Below, in pieces: positions 16,377-16,648 of a stretch of DNA of 64,000 bases. The notes beneath the pieces were generated by a model, which was not told the DNA's origin, made no database searches, and was given only the letters and a program-made list of their open reading frames with translations. The stretch's first letter is position 1, and each line of letters opens with the position of its first letter. Source of the DNA: Escherichia phage PinkRuby; sequence record PP925839.1. One strand, written 5' to 3'. Made by a program: the position numbers and the translations under genes.

Positions 16377-16410
16377 TATTTTTCCTTTCAATTCATGGGT
16401 TAGTAGATTA

Positions 16411-16434
16411 ATTATACAATAAATATATAAAGCA
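16411..16434 (-). promoter_or_regulatory. middle promoter (MotA box TGCTTTA, 11-bp spacer, TATAAT) for gene 56
   Basis: minus strand ATTGCTTTATATATTTATTGTATAAT. Confidence 0.55.
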
Positions 16435-16447
16435 ATAAGGAGGACAT

Positions 16448-16648
16448 ATGGTACAAAAATTAATGGCACTTGTTAATGCCATAAAAGGTAATAAAAAACG
16501 TATAGCTTTTACTATTTCTGCTATGGTAGGAATTTTACTCTGGAACTTTATTTTATCGCCAATTGCTATTGCTCATGGCGTTAATATTCCAGTAATTACT
16601 CTTGATACATTCGTAGATTTAGCATTTGCTTTGGTTGGGTTAATTTAA
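16448..16648 (+). CDS. small membrane protein on the opposite strand
   Basis: 66 aa, hydrophobic; strong SD AAGGAGG 5 nt before ATG; sits where dam lies in T4 as I recall. Confidence 0.45.
   Translation: MVQKLMALVNAIKGNKKRIAFTISAMVGILLWNFILSPIAIAHGVNIPVITLDTFVDLAFALVGLI

Follow-up and report, generated by a model that had tools for sequence, protein, structure and literature searches.

A conserved small membrane-protein gene with a predicted late promoter lies between genes 56 and 61 of T4-like phages and is unannotated in T4 and T2

The interval between the dCTPase gene (gene 56) and the DNA primase gene (gene 61) of Escherichia phage PinkRuby carries a small plus-strand gene, which we read as a conserved gene for an inner-membrane protein that is likely expressed late and that has not replaced dam; a holin-related accessory role is our guess for its function. 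We hold this overall explanation with good confidence. The analysis was made on a window of 64,000 nucleotides of the phage genome (sequence record PP925839.1). What is new here is that the small gene is present but unannotated in T4 and T2 and that it is under purifying selection. Also new are a conserved box that is predicted to be a late promoter and a kinship that the protein may have, judged by profile comparison, to a transmembrane segment of holins.

The window is a segment of a Tequatrovirus genome, and the 1.8-kb region around the interval shares 98% identity with Shigella phage A2 and phages like it. The interval between genes 56 and 61 runs from 16377 to 16644 in the window sequence and measures 268 bp, in agreement with an earlier note on this DNA that had put it at about 270 bp. 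The features of the region are the following, in window coordinates.

15858-16376, minus strand: gene 56 (dCTPase/dUTPase), flanking the interval on the left, with its ATG at the complement of 16374-16376.
16411-16435, minus strand: MotA-dependent middle promoter of gene 56, made up of a MotA box, an 11-nt spacer and a -10 element; the homologous T4 promoter is annotated.
16411-16416, minus strand: the -10 element TATAAT of this promoter, separated by the 11-nt spacer from the MotA box.
16418-16425, plus strand: predicted gp55-type late promoter box AATAAATA (-13 to -6), then TATAAA; the conserved part is ATAAATA.
16428-16435, minus strand: MotA box TTGCTTTA, an element of the gene 56 middle promoter.
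16437-16443, plus strand: Shine-Dalgarno (SD) sequence AAGGAGG of the small ORF, read from the sequence, 4 nt before the ATG.
16448-16648, plus strand: gene for a small hydrophobic protein of 66 aa with an ATG start; homolog of RB32ORF030w and member of phrog_2024.
16453-16482, minus strand: hairpin and T-run resembling a terminator (ATGGCATTAACAAGTGCCAT-TAATTTTTGT); it falls within codons 6-12 of the small gene and lies downstream of gene 61.
16645-17673, minus strand: gene 61 (DNA primase), flanking the interval on the right and convergent with the small gene.

The anatomy described in the earlier note was recovered: a hydrophobic plus-strand ORF of 66 aa with an AAGGAGG SD, convergent with gene 61 and overlapping its stop. 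The two stop codons, TAA at 16646-16648 for the small ORF and the complement of 16645-16647 for gene 61, share a TTAA and overlap by 3 nt. The MotA-box middle promoter that had been proposed for gene 56 was likewise borne out. A MotA-type promoter was defined by the box (a/t)(a/t)TGCTT(t/c)A with a sigma-70 -10 element some 12 bp downstream, and the minus strand here has ATTGCTTTA, 11 nt and TATAAT. This promoter is homologous to T4 P(M)16.53, annotated in X01416, and is kept in HX01, VR25 and YenP8. In T4, P_M(56) is also the oriA primer promoter according to the record annotation. The hairpin is possibly a gene 61 terminator in Tequatrovirus; its sequence is identical in T4, and no equivalent was found in Mosigvirus or Gaprivervirus.

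Homologs of the small ORF were found by tblastn in 692 phage records, about 500 of them at 90% identity or more, a set that corresponds to a Tequatrovirus-level group, and about 190 at roughly 50% identity. The primase gene adjoined the ORF in every locus inspected. The ORF is annotated as hypothetical (RB32ORF030w) in hundreds of genomes, and the window gene is that gene: its size, its strand, its location between 56 and 61 and the way it runs into the gene 61 stop all agree. The protein matched the phrog_2024 profile with E = 3.5e-31 (residues 2-66 against profile positions 1-65 of 65), and the same profile was matched by all 20 members of our family alignment (20/20). No function is assigned to phrog_2024. 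When 1.84 billion representative proteins were searched exhaustively with a profile, 17 clusters came out; the distant members, 52-70 aa long and all within phrog_2024, have in common the motif W-N-[FY]-x3-P-x2-A-x2-G-x2-L-P-x-[IL]-x-[LI]-[DE]. Three word-indexed protein searches were also run, of which the first gave close relatives only and the two made with alignments widened the family and returned no named or PF11351 protein. A literature search found no paper naming this small ORF. The gene belongs to a known hypothetical family and is a syntenic fixture of Tevenvirinae, on the opposite strand between the dCTPase and primase genes. Homologs outside the T4 group stand in mixed contexts (after endonuclease VII, at a prophage end, beside a RelA/SpoT-domain gene), and those in non-T4 phages occur in same-strand contexts.

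The frame shows the marks of a translated gene. It is open for 60-69 codons in the T4-like loci examined, and the SD upstream of it is kept in all of them. Within Tequatrovirus (8 sequences) pN/pS was 0.167 in frame vs 0.785 and 2.29 in the other two frames, and the variable sites fell at codon positions 1, 2 and 3 in the numbers 7, 3 and 12. Between genera dS was saturated (>1.4) at about 50% protein identity, with dN/dS of 0.23-0.36. The small ORF is clearly under purifying selection. A chance open frame held open by overlapping regulatory DNA, that is by the gene 61 terminator and the promoters, could be argued from the opposite-strand terminator-like hairpin inside codons 6-12 and from the AT-rich composition of the region. 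The pN/pS of 0.17 is however confined to the ORF's own frame, half of the protein residues remain identical where synonymous divergence is saturated, and distant homologs with the same motif occur in other phages and in prophages, so that we regard a chance frame as extremely improbable. The hairpin was specifically ruled out as the cause of the ORF's conservation, since it is absent in Mosigvirus and Gaprivervirus, where the ORF persists.

T4 itself carries the gene. In NC_000866 the ORF lies at 17738-17938 on the plus strand, with 63 of 66 residues identical to the PinkRuby protein; the AAGGAGG SD and the way in which the ORF overlaps the stop of gene 61 are as in the window. In T4 it is well separated from P_M(56). 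It is contained in a stretch of about 309 bp between dam and gene 61 for which no gene is annotated, and it is omitted from the T4 annotations AF158101, NC_000866 and X01416; an automated T4 re-annotation calls it as phrog 2024. T2 also carries the ORF beside dam, with an identical SD and stop overlap, unannotated in RefSeq NC_054931.

These sequences bear directly on the reading of the earlier note, a membrane ORF where T4 carries dam, taken here as lineage-specific content of the dam slot. The position of T4 dam had been given correctly, as the T4 record shows dam between genes 56 and 61, and in the window only the small ORF lies between the two genes, which is what such a cassette swap would produce. 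Comparison with T4 and T2 shows however that the small ORF, conserved across the 692 records, sits side by side with dam in both phages. At least 7 records are common to the small-ORF and Dam hit lists, and the ORF is present in genera without dam at the locus. The exchange of dam for a membrane ORF is refuted by the T4 and T2 sequences, and we give it next to no credence. Coexistence with dam in T4 and T2 means that the ORF is not a dam replacement; that it is a real conserved gene, and not a dam substitute, we consider almost certain. The note's anatomy, its gene 56 promoter, the T4 dam position and the absence of dam thus stand, and its reading of the ORF as the occupant of the dam slot falls.

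The absence of dam was upheld in the sequences covered, which were the 64-kb window of this phage (the remaining ~100 kb of its genome lie outside) and the complete genome of a close dam-less relative, LF73P3, which shares 95.6% identity with the window over 59.5 of the window's 64 kb. Searches by tblastn with T4 Dam found no homolog in the window (best E = 0.65) or in the complete LF73P3 genome (best E = 1.0; T4 control 5e-176). A scan of the LF73P3 genome for other N6/N4 methyltransferases with the pattern [DNS]PP[YFW] yielded three matches and no more, each of them implausible and close to the C-terminal end of its ORF. An altered state of GATC methylation is a reasonable prediction from the absence of dam; most enzymes are blocked by the glucosyl-hmC of such DNA.

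Across phage records, T4-type Dam at 90% identity or more was found in about 182, and set against the roughly 500 records with the ORF this indicates that about a third of Tequatrovirus records carry dam. The dam-less state is the majority state in Tequatrovirus and the general Tevenvirinae arrangement at this junction, and it is apparently ancestral there. The order dCTPase (minus), small ORF (plus), primase (minus) without dam occurs in at least five Tevenvirinae genera; it was observed in Mosigvirus HX01 and phage 55, in Gaprivervirus VR25 and relatives, in Jiaodavirus JIPh_Kp122, in Gelderlandvirus STP4-a and in two metagenomic T4-like contigs. The unusual genomes at this locus are T4 and T2, not the window phage. 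Dam is an optional gene, carried in an accessory cassette. The T2 insert consists of a 181-aa gene (T2_032) followed by dam, between the P_M(56) MotA box and the small gene; T4 keeps dam and, upstream of it, a relic of T2_032 that comprises its last 20 codons (…LVLLSNTYDEELYNSFLLQ). The left edge of the insert abuts the P_M(56) MotA box, and its right edge lies just upstream of the small-ORF promoter box. A literature search found no paper on the presence or absence of dam across Tequatrovirus.

The junction showed plasticity of other kinds. One metagenomic phage has three extra small genes there, Yersinia phage P8 has a homing endonuclease between the small ORF and the primase gene, and Gaprivervirus has a tandem paralog of the small ORF that is decayed in several members.

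A late promoter is predicted for the small gene. Late promoters of T4 have TATAAATA at -13 to -6; A stands at -13 in 9 of 50 listed T4 late promoters, and position -13 is poorly conserved in other T4-like phages (PMC2988020, PMC1524935). The window box agrees with the TATAAATA type and has an AT-rich segment downstream; its position -13 is A in the window and G or C in other lineages, and these would be variant late promoters, which tells somewhat against the prediction. Transcription is predicted to start at about 16431, an A, with a 17-nt leader; the corresponding start in T4 would lie at about 17722. Every one of the 22 loci examined in Tequatro-, Mosig- and Gaprivervirus had an exact ATAAATA 16-22 nt before the ATG, and 4 of 5 more distant T4-like loci had it at 12-17 nt, with TTAAATA in Gelderlandvirus; overall the box is conserved in 26 of 27 T4-like loci. 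No late box was found upstream of four homologs in phages and prophages outside the T4 group. Three local settings of the box were seen: inside the P_M(56) spacer in the window, beyond the MotA box in HX01 and VR25, and on the far side of dam in T4. Its retention in all three argues for selection on the box itself rather than for inherited flanking sequence.

The motif is rare in the window. ATAAATA occurs 9 times on both strands, vs 40.3 +/- 6.9 expected from dinucleotide shuffles, a 4.5-fold depletion. On the minus strand all 5 copies lie 13-31 nt upstream of an SD and ATG, and the genes that follow them are lysozyme e (two boxes), endonuclease VII (gene 49), soc and a 70-aa ORF. On the plus strand one copy in four, the small-gene box, precedes an SD and ORF. 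The small gene thereby resembles soc, e and 49, late genes in the early region, where a [T/A]ATAAATA box likewise stands 13-31 nt ahead of an SD and ATG and the genome is otherwise purged of the motif. Those genes lie on the minus strand, with known functions and documented late expression, whereas the small gene lies on the plus strand, has A at -13 and is late by prediction. Taken together, the box and its conservation make it probable that the small gene is served by a late promoter. The earlier note had remarked that plus-strand genes are rare in this region, which is so, and had overlooked the box; the unusual strand of the small gene, opposite to the early and middle genes on either side, and with it the rarity, is accounted for by the predicted late-promoter box that stands before it.

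The plus-strand late box sits within the P_M(56) spacer, the window sequence showed no plus-strand terminator past the end of the small ORF, and the ORF converges on gene 61 with overlapping stops. A late plus-strand RNA, antisense to gene 61, might accordingly be the main functional product, shutting off primase and dCTPase late in infection, with the ORF secondary. Such an RNA would leave unexplained the frame-specific purifying selection, the conserved SD and a protein motif that persists at saturated dS. Furthermore, the overlap of box and P_M spacer is confined to dam-less Tequatrovirus, and homologs in non-T4 phages stand in same-strand contexts. We judge this alternative very unlikely and return to the gene as protein-coding.

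The sequence of the protein suggests a membrane location. Residues 1-18 carry a net charge of +5. They are followed by a strongly hydrophobic helix at residues 19-43 (Kyte-Doolittle ~2.0) with the near-invariant W-N...P...G core (W32, N33 and P38 in it), then by an HGVNIP turn and by residues 47-66, which are hydrophobic, contain two Asp and have a net charge of -2. Residues 19-66 have no K or R, and routine tryptic mass spectrometry would probably fail to detect the protein. AlphaFold2 with the family alignment gave a model with a pLDDT of 79.6 and helices at 2-11, 15-42 and 52-63. From these features we infer an N-in membrane protein that would have one TM helix and a second short helix, membrane-embedded or interfacial. 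Pfam, NCBIfam and PDB sequence searches with the protein and the family returned only chance-level hits to unrelated membrane proteins, and when the AlphaFold2 model was compared with viral structures in Foldseek, nothing came up but family members and small helical proteins without significance. One family member is labelled 'Holin' in UniProt, probably by automatic annotation, and the label was not counted as evidence.

Small class II holins and pinholins of the phage 21 S68 type are about 65-70 aa long and have two hydrophobic segments. In size and in its two hydrophobic segments the small protein would be like them, by analogy, and in Tequatrovirus its start, M-V-Q-K-L-M, resembles a dual-start motif; Met6 is however not conserved in other genera, and the charged region of the small protein is N-terminal, not C-terminal as in the S68 type.

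Holin families were the only function-labelled families that recurred when 20 family members were scanned, with weak hits to PF11351 GTA_holin_3TM (3/20), phrog_3427 (2/20) and phrog_11161 (2/20). The window protein itself had no Pfam match, and the three distant members that hit PF11351 scored 13.6-15.3 bits, below the gathering score of 24.8. In a tblastn search one family member weakly hit a 170-aa protein of Rhodobacter phage RC1 whose gene directly follows the endolysin gene, and this protein scored 24.2 bits on PF11351 (gathering score 24.8) and E = 9e-7 on phrog_3427. Homologs of the RC1 protein directly follow an endolysin or lysozyme gene, and two are annotated as holins. Six such lysis-cassette proteins, each encoded directly downstream of an endolysin or lysozyme gene, made up the holin-side set, which may carry some selection bias because it was picked through a weak tblastn hit.

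Alignment of the small-protein family with these six proteins by hhalign gave a probability of 83%, E = 8.7e-6, over 43 columns, pairing family residues 22-64 (LWN-x3-P...G..LP-x-[IV]-x-[LF]-[DE]...GL) with the last TM segment and tail of the holins. None of 200 column shuffles (0/200; mean 10.4, sd 2.1, max 19.2) came up to the real score of 34.4, which lay ~11 SD above this null; shuffles restricted to the hydrophobic core gave the same result, and the reversed alignment scored 10.7. Weak single-sequence hits to unrelated membrane proteins occurred at similar E-values (e.g. P0118 to an MFS exporter, E = 0.001) and call for caution. True homology to the last holin TM segment, partial and short of family membership, is on these profile comparisons somewhat more probable than a chance likeness. 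PF11351/phrog_3427 holins (Rhodobacter phages RC1, RcapMu and RcWaterboi; Sinorhizobium phage phiM5) are likewise small phage membrane proteins. They are however ~170 aa long, are described with three TM segments and are encoded directly after the endolysin gene, whereas the small protein has 66 aa and one or two hydrophobic segments, and it lacks the charged C-terminal tail typical of holins. In place of three TM segments it has one clear TM helix (19-43) and one hydrophobic C-terminal segment, and its gene lies between 56 and 61, ~47 kb from lysozyme e in the window. We do not class it as a holin-family member, because it has fewer than three TM segments, scores below the Pfam threshold and lies outside a lysis cassette. 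Some non-T4 homologs lie 1.5-3.5 kb from a lysozyme gene, not adjacent to it, and the contexts of the non-T4 homologs gave no clean lysis-cassette signal.

A lysis-related function of the small protein is, on present evidence, rather doubtful. The lysis genetics of T4 (t, e, rI, rIII, spanins) is not known to call for a further component. The gene may instead encode a real small membrane protein, timed late or otherwise, with a role outside lysis (superinfection exclusion, counter-defence or the tethering of assembly or replication), its holin likeness being convergent or uninformative. The gene never adjoins lysis genes in T4-like phages, the holin similarity lies under the curated thresholds, genes for host interaction and anti-defence, sp and dmd among them, are plentiful nearby, and the contexts of the non-T4 homologs are mixed. 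Such a role would however leave aside a profile-profile match to the last holin TM segment that is far above its shuffled and reversed controls, and holins as the only function-labelled families to recur. The T4 exclusion proteins Imm and Sp are made early, and superinfection exclusion would fit a late promoter poorly. A role outside lysis is to us a possibility of some weight, although it falls short of an even chance.

For the favored holin-related reading, we infer late transcription, the membrane topology and the accessory role together as one sequence of events. The gp55-type late box at 16418-16425 would start a short leader at ~16431 that carries the strong SD. The protein would be inserted with its basic N-terminus presumably in the cytoplasm, followed by one TM helix, a short turn and an acidic hydrophobic C-terminal helix. 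It would then act late in the cytoplasmic membrane as a holin-related accessory, for example by modulating permeabilisation or the timing of lysis, an analogy that we draw because the core of the protein aligns with the last TM segment and tail of PF11351/phrog_3427-type holins. The fullest form of this proposal, in which T4, T2 and all their relatives have an overlooked late membrane protein that derives from, or shares ancestry with, the last segment of three-TM holins and controls permeabilisation or lysis timing, we consider unlikely as a whole.

For this window the findings are mostly housekeeping, as the gene belongs to a known hypothetical family and phages of this genus normally lack dam. 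The polymorphism of dam bears on the predicted GATC methylation of therapeutic T4-like phages and hence on their sensitivity to methylation-dependent or GATC-targeting nucleases. In dam-less phages the predicted late box and the gene 56 middle promoter are compactly nested, the box falling within the promoter's spacer, and this makes a candidate early-to-late switch. The T4 and T2 reference annotations miss a gene that is conserved in Tevenvirinae and held there by purifying selection, and the proteomics, CRISPRi screens and expression arrays built on them will have skipped it. The remote link to a holin segment provides a concrete and cheap hypothesis for a protein without a known role. If the fullest form of the proposal is true, a component of lysis or of the membrane has gone unrecognised in the most thoroughly studied of lytic phages, missing from its reference annotation for decades.

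The small protein of Tequatrovirus begins with M-V-Q-K-L-M (window 16448-16465), in which a Lys lies between two Met codons. Lambda-type holin/antiholin pairs have dual-start motifs that this arrangement resembles, but other genera do not conserve Met6. The same end of the small ORF overlaps a feature of the opposite strand:

16453-16482, minus strand: terminator-like hairpin and T-run (ATGGCATTAACAAGTGCCAT-TAATTTTTGT), downstream of gene 61

Within the small ORF, this hairpin falls in codons 6-12. T4 has the identical sequence, and no equivalent was found in Mosigvirus or Gaprivervirus. 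The hairpin may be a terminator of gene 61 transcripts in Tequatrovirus, and the small gene's own mRNA would form the same palindrome from the Met6 codon on.

The late-promoter core ATAAATA, one copy of which precedes the small gene, was counted over the whole window:

4912, 16419, 18398 and 60775, plus strand: ATAAATA
15486, 42981, 56474, 63655 and 63668, minus strand: ATAAATA

These 9 copies compare with 40.3 +/- 6.9 in shuffled sequences, a depletion of about 4.5-fold. All five minus-strand copies are followed 13-31 nt downstream by an SD and ATG, and the genes behind them are e, 49, soc and a 70-aa ORF at 56442. The pattern looks like a genome-wide purge of spurious late promoters.

The small gene has a tandem paralog in Gaprivervirus:

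1995-2192 and 2201-2401 of the phage VR25 locus (L005): tandem copies of the small gene, also present in loci L006, L007 and L021

The paralog is of type b, a form found also in some Klebsiella phages, for example Marfa and Potts1. In Yersinia phage P8 a homing-endonuclease insertion truncates the second copy; TH40 has a frameshift in this copy, and one further contig has a shortened form of it. The first copy is intact in all of these. Distant homologs were also found outside the T4 group:

9502-9714 of an E. coli chromosomal locus (L032; also L030): 70-aa homolog, in a prophage inserted in yegD
129-308 of a 2-kb metagenomic contig (L026): P0118, 59 aa, the most holin-like distant homolog

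At one end of the yegD prophage the 70-aa homolog is the terminal gene, with a DUF2730 gene and a lysozyme gene approximately 1.5 kb before it. The stretch carrying it occurs in no fewer than 25 complete genomes of E. coli. P0118 lies directly upstream of a 352-aa RelA/SpoT-domain gene on the same strand.

The neighborhood of genes 56 and 61 differs from related phages in other respects:

15488-15858, minus strand: two small soc.1/soc.2-like ORFs of 57 and 66 aa, between soc and gene 56
17842-18198 and 18200-18826, minus strand: adjacent ORFs of 118 aa (RB32ORF033c-like) and 208 aa (61.2-like)

T4 instead carries the homing endonuclease gene segF at the position of the soc.1/soc.2-like ORFs; segF is another T4-specific insertion beside gene 56. 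The 118-aa and 208-aa ORFs have a common C-terminal tail (...SIDDQIFNAFMNKG), and related phages have just one of the two, which points to either a duplication or a recombination joint.

GATC is equally under-represented in the dam-less window, its dam-less relative LF73P3 and the T4 segment (observed/expected 0.34, 0.41 and 0.37, respectively), and its depletion therefore does not track dam possession. Directly upstream of dam, T2 and many further dam+ phages have a gene of 181 aa:

1707-2252 of the T2 locus (L045, NC_054931.1), minus strand: T2_032, 181 aa, phrog_8706
4640-4702 of the T4 segment (L001): T2_032 relic, the last 20 codons alone retained

Against Pfam, T2_032 gave sub-threshold matches to three restriction-endonuclease families, among them that of the GATC-specific enzyme DpnII (E about 0.01). 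T2_032 and dam may form a nuclease-plus-methylase accessory cassette of T-even phages.
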